DNA of 64,000 nucleotides from Patescibacteria group bacterium (lineage in GTDB: Bacteria > Patescibacteriota > Minisyncoccia > UBA6257 > 2-01-FULL-56-20): the NCBI GenBank assembly GCA_024654525.1, contig JANLHI010000013.1:18036-82035 (forward strand). Reading direction: 5' to 3'. The translations under genes were made by a program, and so were the position numbers. Shown one piece after another: positions 53,506-64,000 of the stretch (positions within the stretch are counted from its first letter, which is position 1; the number at the start of each line of letters is the position of its first letter). The notes under the pieces were generated by a model. That model ran no database searches and was not told the origin of the DNA. It was given only the letters and a program-made list of their open reading frames with translations.

Positions 53506-53772
53506 ATGTCAGAACGCATTACCGCTATCACCGTCACCTGTAAATGCGGGCAAAAACTTTTTAAGTATCAAAAAGCGGGAACGGGAAGATTGATTAAATG
53601 TTTCATTGCTCGTATTCTTGCGGATTACACCGGGATTCCTGAAAAAATAGGACTTGGTATTGCGGTGCTTTGTCCCGCATGCGGGGGGCGTGTAGGCACC
53701 ACGCAGCGGATTCACGGAAGCGTGGCGATAAAATTGAATCAAGGGCAGATTCAGGGAGTGCGAATTGGGTGA
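53506..53772 (+). CDS. small zinc-ribbon protein (hypothetical)
   Basis: C.C near the N-terminus and CPACGG later give a four-Cys zinc-ribbon arrangement. Confidence 0.4.
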   Translation: MSERITAITVTCKCGQKLFKYQKAGTGRLIKCFIARILADYTGIPEKIGLGIAVLCPACGGRVGTTQRIHGSVAIKLNQGQIQGVRIG

Positions 53773-53776
53773 TATA

Positions 53777-54265
53777 ATGCACGCTATGGTTATTCTCTTA
53801 AATGGTTCAATTAATTCAGGAAAAACCACTATCGCAAAGTTGCTTCAGAAGAAGATGTCAGATACCGCTTTTATTGAAGTGGATGACCTGCGCAATTTTG
53901 TTTCTTGGATGCCGCTCGCACAATCCATACCATTGAATTTGCAGAATGCGGTGGCGGTTGCAAATAATTTTCTTAAACGGAAGCTCAACGTGATTATTGC
54001 ATACCCGTTTTCGCAGAAGGGCTATCAGTATTTTCGTAAAAATTTAAAAATAACAAGGAACGCTATTTACGTATTTACCTTGCGACCGCAGGAAGAAATT
54101 GCTTCTCATAACCGCGGGGATCGAACACTTACGAGATGGGAGAAGAAAAGGATTCATGTCCATTACAAAGATGAGATTGCAAATCCCAAGTTCGGAGTTG
54201 TGATTGATAGTAGTGAGCATACTCCCATGCGTACTGCTGCGATAATTCTTAAATATTTAAAGTAA
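53777..54265 (+). CDS. P-loop kinase (CPT/AAA_33-like)
   Basis: Walker A LNGSINSGKTT near the N-terminus and DD after strand 2. Resembles chloramphenicol-phosphotransferase-like and zeta-like kinases. Confidence 0.55.
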   Translation: MHAMVILLNGSINSGKTTIAKLLQKKMSDTAFIEVDDLRNFVSWMPLAQSIPLNLQNAVAVANNFLKRKLNVIIAYPFSQKGYQYFRKNLKITRNAIYVFTLRPQEEIASHNRGDRTLTRWEKKRIHVHYKDEIANPKFGVVIDSSEHTPMRTAAIILKYLK

Positions 54266-54343: not shown

Positions 54344-56182
54344 ATGTTTGTATGCCAAAACTGTAAAAATTCATTTTCCATTACTTCCGAAGACACCGAT
54401 TTCTATAAAAAAATAGGAGTACCACCGCCAACATTTTGTTGGCTATGTCGTGCGCAGCGGAGGATGGCATTCAGAAATGAAAGGATGCTTTACAAAAGAA
54501 AGAGCGATTTTTCAGGGAAAGAAATTTTTTCGATGTATGCACCCGCCTCTACTACTGTTGCGGCGGGCGAGTCCGATTCGGGATATAAAGTATATGAAAA
54601 AGAGGTGTGGGTATCGGATCAGTGGGATCCTCTCCAATATGGAAAGAAGTATGATTTCAGTCGCCCTTTTTTTGAGCAGTTTAACGAGTTGCTTCACGAA
54701 GTTCCGCTTAAAAACCTTAATGTGGTAAACGGTGTCCGGAGTGATTATAGTAATAACTTTACCGAGCCGAAGAATTGTTATTTATGTTTCAACGGCAACA
54801 AATCGGAGGATTGCATGTATAGTCACGGGCTTACGCAATGCAGTGATTGTGTTGATGTATCGCACCTTTCAAAGTGTGAAAGTTGTTATGAAAGCTTTTG
54901 GCTTACGGGGTGTTCCCGCAATGTGGGGTGTGAGAATTGTGAAAACTCTTTCAATCTCTGGTTTTGCAAGAACTGCGTGGGGTGTTCCGACTGTGTAGGA
55001 TGCGTGGGGCTTCGTAAAAAGCAATATTATATTTTCAACCGCCCTTATTCAAAAGAGGAGTATCAAGGAAAATTTAAGGAATTGAATCTCGGTTCGTGGG
55101 AGTCATACCAAAAGATTAAAACGCAGGCAGAGGAATTGCACCTTAATTTTCCAAACAAATTTATTGATGGATTGAATAATGCGCGCGTGAGCGGTAATTA
55201 TGTGGATCATTCAAAAAATGTTCATGATTCCTTCTTTGTACGTGAAGGAGAAAATCTGAAGTTTTGCCAATATCTTCAGGAGCTTCCCGGGTGTAAGGAT
55301 TGTTATGACTGGTCGGTGTGGGGTGACAATGGACAGTTGATGTATGAGTGTCATGCGTGCGGATTAGGAACGCAGAATGTTCGGTTTTCCCTTTTTGTGC
55401 AAGAGGATTCACATGACATCGAATATTCCATGATATGCAGTGGCTCGCATCACTTGTTTGGGTGCGTGGGACTCCGCAAGAAGGAATATTGCATTTTTAA
55501 CACGCAATACCGCAAAGAAGAGTGGGAAGCGCTTGTGCCAAAAATCCGCGAACACATGAATGCAATGCCATATATCGACAAAGCAGGGTGCATATATAAA
55601 TATGGTGAATTTTTCCCTGCGGAACTTGCACCTGTGGCATATGAAGAATCCATGGCGCAGGAGTATTTTCCCTTGAACGAGGAGGAGATTAAGAAAAATG
55701 GGTATGTGTGGCGCGACTTCGGAAATCGGAATTACACTCCTACGCTTACGTTTGAAAAAATCCCTGACAATATTACCGATGTTCCCGATTCTATTACCGA
55801 TGAGGTTATTTCGTGCGCTCATGCAGGAAAGAAGTGCGGGCAATTATGCGTGAGTGCATTCCGCATTACCGTTGATGAGCTTACATTTCACAAAAAATTG
55901 GGAATACCGTTGCCGCGCATGTGCCACAATTGCCGGACGTTTGAGCGTTTGAAACGTCGCACGGGGTTGCAGCTTTTTGAGCGGAGATGTGAGTGCGCCG
56001 GAAGCGTATCAAATAACGGATTATATACAAATACCGTGGTACATTCTCACGGCGAAAATCAGTGTGCTACACGATTTGAGACTGCGTACGGACCAGACCC
56101 GAATTCTGCCGAAAGCTCCCGCGAGGCAAGGCGGAAAGAGATACTATATTGCGAAGAGTGTTATCACGCGGAAGTAGCATAA
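54344..56182 (+). CDS. cysteine-rich, internally duplicated cytoplasmic protein of unknown function
   Basis: 612 aa with more than 50 Cys and no signal peptide. N- and C-terminal zinc-ribbon-like segments are related (FYKKIGVPPPTFCWLCRAQRR vs FHKKLGIPLPRMCHNCRTFER). Two GCVGLRKK(Q/E)Y.IFN..Y.KEE blocks. Central CxxC-8-CxxC ladder. Confidence 0.65.
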   Translation: MFVCQNCKNSFSITSEDTDFYKKIGVPPPTFCWLCRAQRRMAFRNERMLYKRKSDFSGKEIFSMYAPASTTVAAGESDSGYKVYEKEVWVSDQWDPLQYGKKYDFSRPFFEQFNELLHEVPLKNLNVVNGVRSDYSNNFTEPKNCYLCFNGNKSEDCMYSHGLTQCSDCVDVSHLSKCESCYESFWLTGCSRNVGCENCENSFNLWFCKNCVGCSDCVGCVGLRKKQYYIFNRPYSKEEYQGKFKELNLGSWESYQKIKTQAEELHLNFPNKFIDGLNNARVSGNYVDHSKNVHDSFFVREGENLKFCQYLQELPGCKDCYDWSVWGDNGQLMYECHACGLGTQNVRFSLFVQEDSHDIEYSMICSGSHHLFGCVGLRKKEYCIFNTQYRKEEWEALVPKIREHMNAMPYIDKAGCIYKYGEFFPAELAPVAYEESMAQEYFPLNEEEIKKNGYVWRDFGNRNYTPTLTFEKIPDNITDVPDSITDEVISCAHAGKKCGQLCVSAFRITVDELTFHKKLGIPLPRMCHNCRTFERLKRRTGLQLFERRCECAGSVSNNGLYTNTVVHSHGENQCATRFETAYGPDPNSAESSREARRKEILYCEECYHAEVA

Positions 56183-60235: not shown

Positions 60236-60310
60236 CGCGGGGTGGAGCAGCCCGGTTAGCTCGTCAGGCCCATAACCTGAAGGTCGCTGGTTCAAATCCA
60301 GCCCCCGCAA
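60236..60310 (+). tRNA. tRNA-Met (anticodon CAT), initiator-like
   Basis: Cloverleaf with a C1:A72 mismatch and A73. Anticodon loop CCCATAA. T loop TTCAAAT. Confidence 0.75.
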
Positions 60311-60543
60311 CATGCTTCGGTTTCATGGTGAGAGGGACATGTCATTTTTTACTAAAAATATGCATTCTATCTCCTCACCTGCGTTCGTCCGATACGCCCT
60401 CTCAACATGAAATCCTCCGCTTTTATTTTTCTGCTGAAAACACGCCTAAATTTTGTCGTTAAGCTTCTCTGATTACCCTCTCTAAAATAAAAACCTTCGC
60501 TATTCTCATTTCCCCTTTTTCTTGATATTGTGGAAACGCAATT

Positions 60544-60618
60544 GCCGATGTAGCTCAGTGGCAGAGCAGACGTTTCATAAGCGTCAGGTCGCAGGTTCGA
60601 TCCCTGCCGTCGGCACCA
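60544..60618 (+). tRNA. tRNA with CAT anticodon (elongator Met or Ile2/lysidine), CCA encoded
   Basis: Acceptor GCCGATG/CGTCGGC, anticodon loop TTCATAA, T loop TTCGATC, 3' ACCA present. Confidence 0.8.
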
Positions 60619-60658
60619 AAATACAAACCCGCCAAATGATTGGCGGGTTTGTATTTTG
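60619..60658 (+). terminator. strong rho-independent terminator
   Basis: ATACAAACCCGCCAA-atga-TTGGCGGGTTTGTAT followed by TTTTGG. Confidence 0.7.
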
Positions 60659-60865
60659 GTGCCACTGCGGACTCGGTTTTGCGAAAACTATTTTTGGGAT
60701 GAAAAGGATTTTCGCACAATCTCGACTGAATTTTTGTCCGTCCGCAGGAGGGGCTTTGGCCGTAAGCTCATCCGAACGGGTGTGGCTGCCTCGTCGAGAC
60801 GACGAGTCGAGGCCTGGCCAAGGGCGGCAGCGAGGCGAACGAGGAATGCGGGCAGAAAATATATT

Positions 60866-61288
60866 TTAATTTACCTCAGAATTGAGTATCGCGATTAAAT
60901 CTTCCCGAGTCTTATACAAGTAAACCCCCACATTTTTGTTTCCCTTTATCATTGCTGAAAGTTTCAAGGTATCTTCTCCGTTATAGAGAGCGATGACTTT
61001 TTTATTTAAATGAATCGCTTGCGCAATAAGATATCCTACGCCCAGGCTTGGCGTGGTTACTTCAGCGACGACTACGTCGCTTTTGTGAAGTGTATCAAGC
61101 TCCCGATCGTGGATTTCTTCTTTTTCCAGATCAGTTTCGCCGTATTCGCCGAGAGATTTGTCCGCCACATGTTCCGAAAGAACAGTTCCATACTGCTCAA
61201 GGATTTCTACAATCTCAGCATAGTGCGGCTGGTTAACTCTTCCCCCGCGAATTGAGCCCATAAAAAAGATTTTTTTATCAGTTTTCAT
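60866..61288 (-). CDS. DNPH1/Rcl-like 2'-deoxynucleoside 5'-phosphate N-hydrolase (nucleoside 2-deoxyribosyltransferase superfamily)
   Basis: Matches the DNPH1 signature blocks FMGSIRGGR, GTVLSEHVA, DVVVAEVTTPSLGVGY and LSAMIKG. Alignment is from memory of human DNPH1. Confidence 0.75.
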   Translation of the reverse strand: MKTDKKIFFMGSIRGGRVNQPHYAEIVEILEQYGTVLSEHVADKSLGEYGETDLEKEEIHDRELDTLHKSDVVVAEVTTPSLGVGYLIAQAIHLNKKVIALYNGEDTLKLSAMIKGNKNVGVYLYKTREDLIAILNSEVN

Positions 61289-62091
61289 TTTTTGATGAAG
61301 AGAAGACTTTTATCTTTTGCCTTTGGCCATATCGACAGGAAAAGATTTTGCTGCATGGCGTAGAGAGCAATGTCCTCAATAAGGATTGCGGTTGGCTCGC
61401 GCTCATCATAGCTCGCGTAGAGTATTTTACCGTCGTAGAGCATGAGGTCAACGTCAAAGTGCTTCACGATTTTTTCTTCTACGCTTTTGAACTTCGTGAA
61501 ATCATCATATTTTCTTTTTGAAAAGTAGTGTGCCGATTCCTTGTTTTCAGAAAATATGATATTTTTTTGTATTTTCTTCATAATCCGCCTCTGCTCATGG
61601 AGCTCCCGTACCTCAAGTCCGGGTTTCTTCTTTCCCAGTGTTTCGTACGCAAGAATTATTTTTGGCCGGGAAATGATGATGTCCTCAAGTGCTTTTCTGT
61701 ATTCTTCAATGCCCTCAAAGATTCGCACGCCCGGACGAACTCCCCCGAGTCGGTACCGGGTTTTAAGCTCGGGGATAATTTCTCGTACTGCGTGAGCTTG
61801 TTTCTCAAATTCCTTTTCCCGCTCAGCGAGAAGTTCATACAACCGCTCCGGATTCTCTGCGATGTAGAGTGTGCGCCATTTGTCTTTTGAGGTAGAAACC
61901 AACCCCTTCTGGGAGAGCTGGTTCAGCACGTAATAGAGCATGGTGCGTGGGAAAGGAGAACGAGTGGCGAGTTCTTGCACCGTGCTTTTCGGATATTTAA
62001 GCATAACCGAGTAAAGCAGGGCTTCGTTTTCACTTAAGCCGAGCTTTTCTAAAACGCCCACTATATTGTTCTTTTGTTTTGTGTTTTTCAT
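61285..62091 (-). CDS. TrmB-family transcriptional regulator-like protein
   Basis: N-terminal wHTH (LGLSENEALLYSVMLKYPKSTVQELATRSPFPRTMLYYVLNQLSQKGLV) plus a TrmB-like C-domain. The stop overlaps the DNPH1-like start (ATGA). Confidence 0.65.
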   Translation of the reverse strand: MKNTKQKNNIVGVLEKLGLSENEALLYSVMLKYPKSTVQELATRSPFPRTMLYYVLNQLSQKGLVSTSKDKWRTLYIAENPERLYELLAEREKEFEKQAHAVREIIPELKTRYRLGGVRPGVRIFEGIEEYRKALEDIIISRPKIILAYETLGKKKPGLEVRELHEQRRIMKKIQKNIIFSENKESAHYFSKRKYDDFTKFKSVEEKIVKHFDVDLMLYDGKILYASYDEREPTAILIEDIALYAMQQNLFLSIWPKAKDKSLLFIKK

Positions 62092-62299
62092 ATTGTAATT
62101 CCCTCGGTCTTTTAATGGTTGTAAAATAGATATTTACAAACTACCCATGAATCAGTTGAAGTTTCAGCACTATACAATAAGCTCTCCCTAGCTGTCAAGA
62201 ACCTATTTGAACCCGCCGTGTGGCAGGTGTAAGAGTTGGATTGACAGGTTTTTTGATAAAAACAGGTGGCGACAGCCCGCTTGTAAATTAGGAAAAAGT

Positions 62300-62878
62300 A
62301 TGAAAAATCAAACACAAACATTTCATCTTAGCCAAGTCCTTGATGTGTTAGCGCAACGTCTCATCTCTCACACTTCAAAAATCGACGGTCTGGTTGAAAT
62401 ACTTGAGTTCATGACTGGTGATAAAATCTTAGACTTCAATCATTTTCGGATGCTGAAGGACGCATGCGAGGACGCTCTGCTCCAGAAATTTCCAGTGCTC
62501 GGCTCGCCCGAGATGGAAGCGGCGTGGAAGAAGTTGGAGGAGGCGATAAGGGCACAGAAAATCGAACCTACTGATGAAGGGTGCAGCATGTTGCGGAAAA
62601 TAAACAATGATTGGTTGGCGAAAATAGGCGACGGTACCTTCGGTGTTAGGCTGGTCTTGTGTGACCCGCCCTCAGAAGAGGAAGTTCGTACGCGGTGGGA
62701 TTTGTCTTTCATTTTGGGTAGATTGCCTGATAGTCCACACAAATTCCCGCCCCCGATATGTGACTACTTCCTCGAAGTGGCGCAACTGTCGGCAGGTGAG
62801 CACACGCACGTCAACCCGATTCAACAACTCATCGCCATGACGCCGCCCGAGAAGCTCGTCCACGTAATTCTCCCTTGA
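62300..62878 (+). CDS. hypothetical protein (193 aa)
   Basis: ORF divergent from the TrmB-like gene. No recognisable motif. Start chosen at MKNQTQ. Confidence 0.45.
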   Translation: MKNQTQTFHLSQVLDVLAQRLISHTSKIDGLVEILEFMTGDKILDFNHFRMLKDACEDALLQKFPVLGSPEMEAAWKKLEEAIRAQKIEPTDEGCSMLRKINNDWLAKIGDGTFGVRLVLCDPPSEEEVRTRWDLSFILGRLPDSPHKFPPPICDYFLEVAQLSAGEHTHVNPIQQLIAMTPPEKLVHVILP

Positions 62879-62979
62879 AGAATGGCAAATATGGTCAAGG
62901 ATGGCCGCACAAATTGCTGTGCGCCCTCCGACCAAACTCATGAGTACAGAAAGTAATTGAAACTAACGAAAGAAAAGAT

Positions 62980-63744
62980 ATGAAAAGTATGTCATTCGAC
63001 CAGGCGATTGCTGCTTGGCAAAAACGGGAACCCACGAAGCCTCCGCTCACATTGCCGACCCGCCTGCGCGCGGTTGTAGTATGGATGGCGGCGAATACGA
63101 AATTCGCTCAGGGCGTGAAGAGAAATCAAACAACTCGGGAACTAGCTCTGCTTATGCGAGACTACTTTCGAGCTTTCGCGCTTATGGTCGCGCAGTACCC
63201 GAGGCGGAGTGTTGCGCTTGGAATCGCGATCAACTATCCCCCCGGATCATGTACGCGGTGTGGGAAGGACCGATGTAAGTGTCCGCCGGGTCTCAAAACC
63301 AAAATTTTGGACCAGGAGATCAATCCAGAATGGCTGAAAGAGTCTATTTACTCTGTGCAGACGCGCATGCGCAAACTTTACCATGCCGCCAATATGTTAA
63401 ATGGAGGATGGTGGAATATGCTCGCGCGATATTACCTCGAGGTCCACGAGGCATTCGATGAGGATTTAGCCGAGATGGCCGAGTCGCTTAGATTGCTCAC
63501 AGAGGGCGACAACAGCCAATTAAATGGGGATCCGGATGAGAGACAATCTGAAGAAAGCCTCATCAAAAAGAACATAGAGTTTGGGGATTTGATGATTTGG
63601 CTAGCAGTTGTAGCCAACATGCTCGATATCCCGTTAAACAAAGTCGCAGATCCCGAATGGGATATGACCAGCTTCGTCTTTGCAGACGAAATCAAACTGG
63701 CACAGGGCGAGTTCGAGATCAGCGATCAATCACTATCAGTCTAA
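62980..63744 (+). CDS. protein with CxxC..CxC motif and a C-terminal MazG-like NTP-pyrophosphohydrolase domain
   Basis: MazG-type acidic helices YLEVHEAFDED...EFGDLMIWLAVVANMLDIPL. Upstream segment CTRCGKDRCKC. Confidence 0.5.
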   Translation: MKSMSFDQAIAAWQKREPTKPPLTLPTRLRAVVVWMAANTKFAQGVKRNQTTRELALLMRDYFRAFALMVAQYPRRSVALGIAINYPPGSCTRCGKDRCKCPPGLKTKILDQEINPEWLKESIYSVQTRMRKLYHAANMLNGGWWNMLARYYLEVHEAFDEDLAEMAESLRLLTEGDNSQLNGDPDERQSEESLIKKNIEFGDLMIWLAVVANMLDIPLNKVADPEWDMTSFVFADEIKLAQGEFEISDQSLSV

Positions 63745-63762
63745 TAGGAAGGAGACGAATCA

Positions 63763-64000
63763 TGGAAACAAATGAGAATAAGTTCGAAAACTTGATCCGT
63801 GTCAATCTGTCGGTCCGTCCGGTCTATCCTGCCTGGGTGAAGGAGGTAATGCATCCCCACCTCGAAATGACGGGTCTTGCCGAATATTATCTTCGTACCC
63901 TGGGACGGTGGCTGCCGACGGAGAACTATAAGGGGTGCTCTACGTCCGGTTCTATATACAGAGAACTTGTGCAAAAGGCTCTTATCAAGGACTGTTTCGG
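63763..64000 (+). CDS. hypothetical protein, 5' portion only (runs off the window)
   Basis: ATG at 63763 with an AGGAG-like RBS (GGAAGGAGA). Open to the window edge. Confidence 0.4.

Follow-up and report, generated by a model that had tools for sequence, protein, structure and literature searches.

Patescibacteria have no de novo nucleotide synthesis and depend on scavenged nucleic-acid components, and to our knowledge the regulation and quality control of this nucleotide supply are largely unknown. What, then, is the role of a locus in which the gene for a TrmB-family regulator, from a family that classically controls sugar metabolism, runs directly into the gene for a DNPH1/Rcl-family nucleotide N-glycosidase? 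Such a trmB-dnph1 pair lies near the end of a 64-kb stretch of a Patescibacteria contig (JANLHI010000013.1; the whole stretch is referred to below as the window), with three open reading frames (ORFs), denoted P3, P4 and P5, diverging from it. Comparison with related loci leads us to regard the locus as rather probably an inducible regulon for nucleotide catabolism or pool sanitation, with a housekeeping role and not one in immunity. The evidence comes from the conservation of the pair, a candidate operator in front of it, a systematic change of active-site residues in its enzyme, and the genes that recur on the divergent arm in relatives.

The trmB-dnph1 pair and its candidate operator

The core of the locus consists of the following elements (coordinates in the window):

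60866-61288, minus strand: DNPH1/Rcl-family nucleotide N-glycosidase, 140 aa, assigned to a Glu/Phe-type subfamily (Pfam PF05014, PDB match, residue mapping)
61285-62091, minus strand: TrmB-family regulator, 268 aa, TrmBL2-like architecture with winged helix-turn-helix (HTH), long helix and C-terminal domain (PF01978, PDB)
62120-62138, no strand: candidate operator, a 19-bp palindrome (unique exact-pattern match in the window, conserved in relatives)
62169-62198, minus strand: sigma-70-like promoter in front of trmB-dnph1 (agrees with the consensus at 11 of 12 positions)
62228-62246, no strand: weak second operator-like site (position weight matrix (PWM) score 10.9)

Both family assignments made in an initial annotation of this DNA were borne out. 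The 140-aa protein matches Pfam Nuc_deoxyrib_tr (PF05014) with 36.7 bits against a cut-off of 28.8, and a phmmer search of the PDB returned 12 sequences, all of them DNPH1/Rcl (E 9e-27 to 7e-26), and no NDT or MilB match at E<=1. Identity to DNPH1 is about 50% over 114 residues, and the signature blocks GSIRGGR, EHVAD, VVAEVTxPSLGVGY and LSAMI align with those of DNPH1/Rcl. The 268-aa protein carries a winged HTH at residues 14-82 (PF01978, 57.8 bits against a cut-off of 25.6, E 1e-15) and matches TrmB and TrmBL2 in the PDB (E 0.0009-0.003), with a weak end-to-end alignment to TrmBL2 (E 0.002). Its NCBIfam matches to TrmBL1, TrmB and TrmBL2 are all far below the equivalog cut-offs (TrmBL2 E 0.013), a Pfam search gave no match to the TrmB sugar-binding C-domain, and a single-sequence AlphaFold model is too poor (predicted local distance difference test (pLDDT) 44) to be used for the C-terminal domain.

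The stop codon of trmB and the ATG of dnph1 overlap by 4 nt (ATGA, 61285-61288, from the ORF coordinates), as had been annotated. A scan of a genome collection with a DNPH1 alignment gave 80 loci. In the closest of these, down to about 50% DNPH1 identity, trmB is located directly upstream of dnph1, whereas TrmB is absent from 61 more distant DNPH1 loci; five additional close relatives have the same pair, with an overlap of 4 nt or 1 nt, and the arrangement holds in all of the approximately 25 closest Patescibacteria loci. TrmB-DNPH1 is thus a conserved, translationally coupled unit.

When the 220 bp upstream of TrmB were lined up across the loci, a palindrome emerged that an inverted-repeat search of the window intergenic region (default extension) had missed. 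In the window it reads TGTAAATATCTATTTTACA on the minus strand (TGTAAA-N7-TTTACA), and its consensus, TGTMAW-N7-WTKACA, is found 30-50 bp before the TrmB start codon in almost all loci. The motif precedes TrmB in 16 of the 19 genome loci and also in L084, L085, L087 and L089, and its position is fixed while the neighbouring intergenic DNA diverges. The exact pattern occurs once in the window, against 0.1 expected, and three times in 800 kb of unlinked DNPH1 loci; no PWM site scoring >=17 was present in 800 kb of DNPH1 loci without TrmB. Within the window, 29 nt separate the palindrome from the TrmB ATG that follows it, and the promoter (62198-62169, minus strand: TTGACA, 18 nt, TATAGT) is about 30 nt upstream, which puts the palindrome at approximately +25 to +43 relative to the predicted transcription start. 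Two relatives, L004 and L006, have kept both boxes (-35 and -10) as well as the distance between them and the operator. An autorepressor acting as a roadblock would be expected to bind at just such a place. We read the palindrome as a putative autoregulatory TrmB operator.

A second, weaker site is found in many loci at a distance of 87-91 bp upstream of the first. Its counterpart in the window (62228-62246; minus strand, TGTCAATCCAACTCTTACA) overlaps a TTGACA of the plus strand, and 18 of its 19 bases are identical to L004:5915, which is upstream of a P4-like gene there; whether it is an operator or the -35 box of a divergent P3-P4-P5 transcript is ambiguous. Strong extra operators precede the P4-like gene in L004 (score 19.1), a MazG-like-HD gene pair in L006 (22.6) and a gene of a Cys-motif family in L085 (22.9). 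In front of the P4-like gene of L004, 137 bp of window-like promoter-operator sequence are present as a duplicate copy (blastn).

Some side observations concern the regulator and its operator. At L004:5906-6160 the promoter-operator is duplicated and a 291-aa orphan gene has been inserted between TrmB and the P4-like gene, which suggests a recent rearrangement at this spot. Within the window, a further operator-like site (TGTAAAAATTCATTTTCCA, 54362-54380, PWM 17.3) lies 18 nt inside the start of ORF 54344-56182 and could represent either another regulon member or a coincidence in coding sequence. This ORF encodes a very CxxC-rich protein of 612 aa whose sole family match is a weak one to the zf_Tbcl treble-clef, and just upstream of it is a 166-aa P-loop kinase-like ORF (53765-54265) with a chloramphenicol phosphotransferase/Zeta-toxin-like N-terminus (E 4e-9). 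Four TrmB-like paralogues, one of which forms a pair with DNPH1, are found within 10 kb of L013 (3381-13024), suggesting that the regulator family is enlarged in some Patescibacteria. Six loci (L008, L010, L012, L014, L019 and L030) carry the operon of the Patescibacteria type and are labelled 'uncultured Gammaproteobacteria' in third-party assemblies, probably a taxonomic mis-assignment.

Active-site residues of the TrmB-linked enzymes

To compare linked with unlinked loci, the catalytic residues of human DNPH1 were mapped onto every locus. Tyr24, Asp80 and Glu104 are highly conserved among DNPH1 orthologues, and the 5'-phosphate is contacted by the Ile29-Arg30-Gly31 loop, by Ser98/Gly100 and by Ser128 of the partner subunit (PMC10483697). 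The window enzyme retains the nucleophile (E76 at the Glu104 site, in VVAEVT; Glu or Asp across clade members) and the phosphate-binding residues S12-I13-R14-G15, S81/G83 and S111, of which S81 and S111 are kept in 23 of 23 TrmB-linked and 61 of 61 unlinked homologues.

The other two catalytic positions, both of which serve as membership criteria for DNPH1, are occupied differently. F8 stands at the Tyr24 site, which in the linked clade holds Phe in 15 cases, Leu in two, Gln in one, His in one and Tyr in three (unlinked homologues: Tyr in 59 of 61). E63 stands at the site of Asp80, the proposed general acid/base, where Glu is found in 23 of 23 TrmB-linked genes and Asp in 61 of 61 unlinked homologues. 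Among the top 120 database homologues, 119 have Glu at the Asp80 site, and the Tyr24 site holds Phe in 87, Tyr in 23 and Leu in eight. The linked loci belong to one clade, so the residue changes count as one evolutionary event and not as 23.

Judged by sequence, then, the 140-aa protein is a DNPH1 homologue that departs from DNPH1 in two residue-level tests, and the TrmB-linked enzymes form a distinct subfamily within the DNPH1 family. The approximately 50% DNPH1 identity, the nucleophile Glu and the phosphate-binding residues together suggest that the TrmB-linked enzyme would cleave the base-sugar bond of a nucleoside 5'-monophosphate. Replacement of Asp80 by Glu is conservative, and function may be retained. 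In DNPH1, Tyr24 hydrogen-bonds the nucleophile, and kcat/KM of the rat enzyme falls 280-fold when this Tyr is replaced by Phe; the mammalian enzyme prefers 5-hydroxymethyl-dUMP (hmdUMP) (PMC10483697). With Phe at the Tyr24 site and Glu at the Asp80 site, a deoxynucleoside monophosphate (dNMP) or hmdUMP substrate is not to be assumed, and the initial assignment of such substrates is thereby weakened.

The window enzyme has in common with mammalian DNPH1/Rcl the GSIRGG phosphate loop, the 5'-phosphate-binding serines of PS(81)LG and LS(111)AM, the nucleophile Glu in VVAEVT and, as expected from homology, the dimeric fold of the NDT superfamily. It differs in having Phe for Tyr24 and Glu for Asp80, and in being a bacterial protein coupled to a dedicated regulator. 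DNPH1 is an enzyme of current biomedical interest, and the clade offers a natural experiment on its catalysis.

The divergent arm in the window and in relatives

On the other side of the intergenic region the window contains:

62300-62878, plus strand: P3, orphan, 192 aa (ORF; DUF7736/phrog_15963-like N-terminus)
62980-63744, plus strand: P4, 254 aa, with a Cys4 knuckle and an all-alpha, probably MazG-like domain (profile comparisons)
63762-64000, plus strand: P5, ORF of at least 79 aa that leaves the window, without recognisable family (ORF, library searches)

The ORFs of 20 linked loci were clustered and the clusters searched against Pfam and the PDB, with the 61 unlinked loci as comparison. 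A gene for an HD_3/YfbR-like 5'-nucleotidase is present on the divergent arm in 13 of the 20 linked loci and in none of the 61 unlinked ones; its matches are to HD_3/YfbR-like proteins (E 6e-29) and to HDDC2 (E 1e-16). A 108-aa gene of the relatives gives weak Pfam matches to MazG and MazG-like families, and the arm at times also holds dUTPase, thymidine kinase (TK) and Nudix genes. Near the linked loci, ThyA, DHFR, Tmk, NDK and UDG were seen by eye. The idea in the initial annotation that several nucleotide-pool enzymes are placed under a dedicated regulator was therefore right in spirit: its support comes from the HD, MazG-like, dUTPase, TK and Nudix genes of relatives, along with the extra operators in L004, L006 and L085. 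The HD gene resembles E. coli YfbR and human HDDC2 5'-deoxynucleotidases in its matches to HD_3, YfbR-like proteins and HDDC2, and differs from them in being embedded in a TrmB/DNPH1-linked cluster. In relatives the HD, small MazG and dUTPase genes sit 2-4 kb out on the arm, so that the HD and MazG genes could lie just past base 64000 of the window.

A second recurrent element is a protein with the motif C-x2-C-x4/5-C-x-C, encoded directly beside TrmB and divergent from it in eight of the 20 loci, P4 of the window included. The motif was not found in any of the 61 unlinked loci (782 ORFs), nor was the HD gene. Members of 385-436 aa chain together by BLAST, and the family core, present also in P4, is (K/N)Y(G/P)...CxxCx4CxC...Y-x3-N-x11-R-x3-E. 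As judged from its sequences, this Cys-knuckle family is fast-evolving. One member, L014:5745-6908, has weak matches to JetD/DUF3322-type (PADLOC E 0.002) and DUF3323 (Pfam E 0.07) at residues 45-140; these are probably due to chance, though both fall on the same region.

P4 had been described as a 254-aa protein with a Cys cluster and a MazG-type domain. The Cys cluster is present (C91-x2-C94-x4-C99-x-C101), and the start used by NCBI gives 251 aa from 62989; the MazG assignment is plausible but borderline. P4 has no match in Pfam, NCBIfam, PHROG or PADLOC, and the only close homologues found, three in number and encoded on contigs not longer than about 1 kb, have no Pfam, NCBIfam or PHROG match at E<=1; one of them is named 'NTP pyrophosphatase' by JGI. 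A profile of the four-member family matched a single PDB entry, the MazG-like YpjD of B. subtilis (2gta; E 0.0011, 21.6 bits, residues 153-224). All four sequences share, without variation, the acidic residues E154-x2-E157-x2-D160 and E200-x2-D203, which are located on predicted long helices. The AlphaFold model is poor (pLDDT 53), and fold searches with it were unspecific and left a four-helix bundle unconfirmed. P4 shares with the YpjD/MazG/DCTPP1 all-alpha pyrophosphohydrolases the YpjD profile match and the ExxE...ExxD acidic pattern; unlike them it lacks a Pfam match and has an inserted Cys4 knuckle, an extra N-terminal helical region and a tiny family.

An exhaustive profile search with the P4 family returned itself, a distant relative of 237 aa (P0128) and two further proteins, P0126 (a 568-aa tandem repeat) and P0127 (4625 aa), which were rejected as they look like repeat or low-complexity artefacts. 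P0128, which itself matches MazG at E 0.12, aligns with P4 at an hhalign probability of 95.6%. The 348-aa neighbour in L004 matches P4 by blastp (E 6e-4 in a database of 305 proteins) and hhalign (76%). No relationship was detected between P4 and the small MazG-like family of relatives (hhalign 0.5%). Taken together, the motif, profile and operator comparisons make P4 a probable member of a partner family that recurs and is co-regulated.

For P3 and P5 the picture is different. The ORF of P3 is present as annotated, with a length of 192 aa from the ATG at 62300 instead of 193 aa. Its N-terminal 60-85 aa or so reach 24.7 bits with DUF7736 (cut-off 25), and its N-terminus matches the phage family phrog_15963 (E 7.5e-8); a homologue search of 5.8 billion proteins returned P3 itself alone. 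The further ORF said to run off the window, P5, is present from 63762. When P3 and P5 were compared as hhalign profiles with all neighbour families of relatives, no relationship was found, and neither has a detectable link to the module. Gene-neighbourhood conservation, proposed earlier as a check, thus gives a divided outcome: the TrmB-DNPH1 pair is kept in approximately 25 loci and the P4-like family recurs, whereas P3 and P5 do not.

Proposed function, alternatives and surroundings

In the model that we favour, a sigma-70-type promoter would drive a two-gene, self-repressed operon encoding the TrmB-family repressor and the translationally coupled DNPH1-family N-glycosidase. A repressor dimer would bind TGTAAA-N7-TTTACA in the 5' leader and block transcription until released by a ligand, and the enzyme would yield a free base and (deoxy)ribose 5-phosphate. 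This operon may anchor a regulon, specific to a clade of Patescibacteria, for the breakdown or sanitation of scavenged (deoxy)nucleotides. On the arm of relatives, the HDDC2/YfbR-like 5'-nucleotidase would convert dNMP to nucleoside and the small MazG-like NTP pyrophosphatase (d)NTP to (d)NMP, at times accompanied by dUTPase, TK and Nudix enzymes and by the Cys4-knuckle/MazG-like protein, with some genes under an operator copy of their own. The visible arm of the window would then comprise the orphan P3, P4 as a Cys-knuckle/MazG-like member and the truncated P5, with HD and small MazG genes perhaps beyond base 64000. In an organism without de novo nucleotide synthesis, the likely role is to remove nucleotides that are unwanted or non-canonical and to recover bases and sugar phosphate.

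The regulator fits this model in several respects. It has in common with archaeal TrmB, TrmBL1 and TrmBL2 the PF01978 winged helix, co-linearity over the full length with TrmBL2 (about 265 aa) and a palindrome with a 7-nt spacer in the promoter region of its own gene; it differs in its bacterial host, in the operator TGTAAA-N7-TTTACA and in having a nucleotide gene, not a sugar gene, as target. Several points weigh against the model. The assignment of operator to regulator is a purely comparative inference, and for TrmBL2-type proteins we know of no ligand. The linked loci form a single clade, so that locus counts are not independent events. The window enzyme has Phe8 in place of the DNPH1 Tyr, and Glu for Asp80, and its substrate may not be a dNMP. 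The MazG ancestry of P4 is borderline, and its connection to the long Cys family (clusters c5/c10) consists of an hhalign probability of 26-36% plus the shared motif and position. P3 and P5 have neither homologues nor a link to the module, and the HD, small MazG and dUTPase genes were not found within the visible 64 kb. A variable, orphan-rich divergent arm also resembles an arms-race locus.

Three other explanations have to be weighed, the nearest of which is a variant of the same model. The Glu/Phe-type enzyme might be a ribonucleoside 5'-monophosphate N-glycosidase, or have relaxed sugar specificity, releasing ribose 5-phosphate and base from scavenged NMPs while a repressor of a sugar-regulator family gates the entry of nucleotide-derived pentose phosphate. 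We hold this to be possible but doubtful. TrmB-family regulators are classically tied to sugar metabolism, and the Tyr24 site is Phe in the window and mostly Phe in the linked clade and the top 120 homologues. Change from Tyr to Phe is a known sugar-specificity switch of the superfamily, so the subfamily could widen the range of DNPH1 reactions: in NDTs it raises ribonucleoside use (PMC12645435), and in MilB, where a Phe opens the matching motif F-L-(G/A)-(G/A)-P-F-(R/K), the reverse change F17Y flips the preference from CMP to dCMP (PMC4081090, citing Sikowitz 2013). The (hm)CMP N-glycosidases MilB, BcmB and BlsM resemble the window enzyme in belonging to the NDT superfamily, in acting on nucleoside 5'-monophosphates (predicted for the window enzyme), in the Phe at the NDT/DNPH1 Tyr site together with a loop Arg/Lys (F8...R14 in the window, F17...R23 in MilB) and, for some MilB-type enzymes, in a genetic linkage to ThyA-like genes (PMC4081090). 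They differ in showing no pairwise PDB similarity at E<=1 and in residing in nucleoside-antibiotic clusters with no TrmB, HD or MazG beside them. Against the ribonucleotide variant, the window protein is far nearer to DNPH1 than to MilB or BlsM, the equivalence of F8 with MilB F17 comes from a motif alignment and not from structure, three clade members retain Tyr, and the recurring partners are deoxynucleotide enzymes (YfbR/HDDC2-like 5'-deoxynucleotidase, dUTPase, TK, ThyA, DHFR, Tmk).

A further alternative is that TrmB-DNPH1 alone is the unit and that P3-P5, which would have nothing to do with it, adjoin it in a variable hotspot for insertions, so that there is no multi-enzyme module at all. 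It is in line with the finding that tblastn with P3, P4 and P5 in 83 DNPH1 loci gave nothing, with the orphan state of P3 and the three close P4 homologues on short contigs, with the variation among relatives in the genes adjoining TrmB, and with the location of the single strong operator of the window intergenic region beside TrmB. To conclude from the tblastn result that P3-P5 never co-localise with DNPH1, and that the module is thus refuted, would nevertheless be too hasty for P4 in the light of the Cys-motif, profile and operator analyses. P4 has the Cys knuckle, the Y-x3-N-x11-R-x3-E core and its position in common with TrmB neighbours in seven other loci, it matches the 348-aa neighbour in L004, that gene is preceded by a duplicated window-like promoter-operator, and the motif is absent from the ORFs of unlinked loci. 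The reading as bystanders remains mainly for P3 and P5, and as an account of the whole locus we regard it as rather improbable. Antiphage defence, as the initial annotation had suggested, was also considered: infection would derepress the operon, and the DNPH1, MazG-like and HD enzymes would deplete dNTPs and dNMPs or destroy hmdUMP-type nucleotides. Known nucleotide-depletion antiphage systems, in which dCTP deaminase and dGTPase defence genes act on deoxynucleotide pools, likewise employ deoxynucleotide-pool enzymes, and here several of these are found under one regulator. The divergent arm is hypervariable, and the only features leaning towards conflict biology are its orphan-rich, fast-evolving stretch beside TrmB, with the Cys-knuckle family, and the domain that P3 has in common with phrog_15963. 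In addition, hmdUMP, the substrate preferred by mammalian DNPH1 (PMC10483697), contains a base that some phages use. On the other hand, no component matched a PADLOC-DB v2 system: the window DNPH1, P3, P4 and P5 gave no match, TrmB gave generic wHTH matches alone (Csa3, CasR), and partners in relatives gave only chance-level ones (E ~2e-3). Scans of viral contigs with P3 and P4, and tblastn of phage GenBank entries with DNPH1 and P3, returned nothing. The enzyme comes from an abundant subfamily, which takes in every one of the top 120 homologue clusters (119 of them with Glu), the partners include ordinary thymidylate-pathway genes, and no sensor, toxin or abortive-infection-type effector is present. 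In contrast to nucleotide-depletion systems, the locus has no homologous component, a housekeeping context (MurD, GatCA, tRNA and ribosomal genes, not a defence island) and a regulator of the classical autorepressor kind instead of an infection sensor. The lack of PADLOC and phage homologues, the housekeeping flanks and the ordinary thymidylate/dNTP partners favour a nucleotide regulon over defence; the latter is not supported, the locus does not reveal a new kind of immune system, and we give the defence explanation only a very small chance.

With respect to novelty, a full-text literature search found no paper describing a TrmB-DNPH1 operon, and we did not find described its operator, the clade-wide changes of Asp to Glu and Tyr to Phe, or the Cys4-knuckle MazG-like partner family. 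Taken singly, the parts are familiar: the N-glycosidase belongs to the DNPH1 family, the repressor to the TrmB family, and the nucleotide hydrolases are of the HD and MazG kinds. They do not make a new class of system. A more far-reaching idea, which we put forward tentatively, is that the Glu/Phe-type enzymes represent a branch of the NDT superfamily with a new function, acting on a ribonucleotide or an environmental modified nucleotide, and form with the Cys4-knuckle MazG-like protein, the HD nucleotidase and a ligand-sensing TrmB an undescribed inducible scavenging pathway in ultra-small, nucleotide-auxotrophic Patescibacteria; if true, this pathway might also protect against phage-type modified bases. 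In any case, the locus provides, for organisms that do not lend themselves easily to study, a regulon open to direct test: it has a defined candidate operator, a dedicated repressor and a subfamily of enzymes that differ systematically from DNPH1 at two of its three catalytic residues.

The surroundings of the operon include two tRNA genes:

60236-60311: further tRNA-Met (tRNA-gene prediction)
60544-60618, plus strand: tRNA-Met (CAT) flanking the operon (ARAGORN; Rfam tRNA 68.9 bits; blastn match to L004:8654-8731)

To the left of the operon, the two tRNA-Met genes are followed by MurD, GatC, GatA and an Hsp20 gene, and the flanks of the window are housekeeping in kind (MurD, GatCA, tRNAs, ribosomal proteins). 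In relatives the flanking genes are housekeeping too, but vary from genome to genome. The idea that a mobile element with the operon as its cargo had integrated at tRNA-Met was rejected, as no integrase is visible and a tRNA-Met adjoins DNPH1 also in L004, the closest relative (blastn). The spacer of about 230 bp between the two tRNA-Met genes (60312-60543) has no ORF or RNA-family match. At ~60612-60662 there is a perfect inverted repeat of about 22 bp, GGCACCAAAATACAAACCCGCC...GGCGGGTTTGTATTTTGGTGCC, which starts inside the 3' acceptor end of tRNA-Met (GGCACCA) and folds back on it. An Rfam scan gave the two tRNAs alone, plus a spurious match to the miRNA mir-B8 caused by this hairpin. The hairpin may act as a terminator in both directions, for the tRNA gene on one side and the DNPH1 operon on the other, and together with tRNA-Met it is a boundary of the unit.

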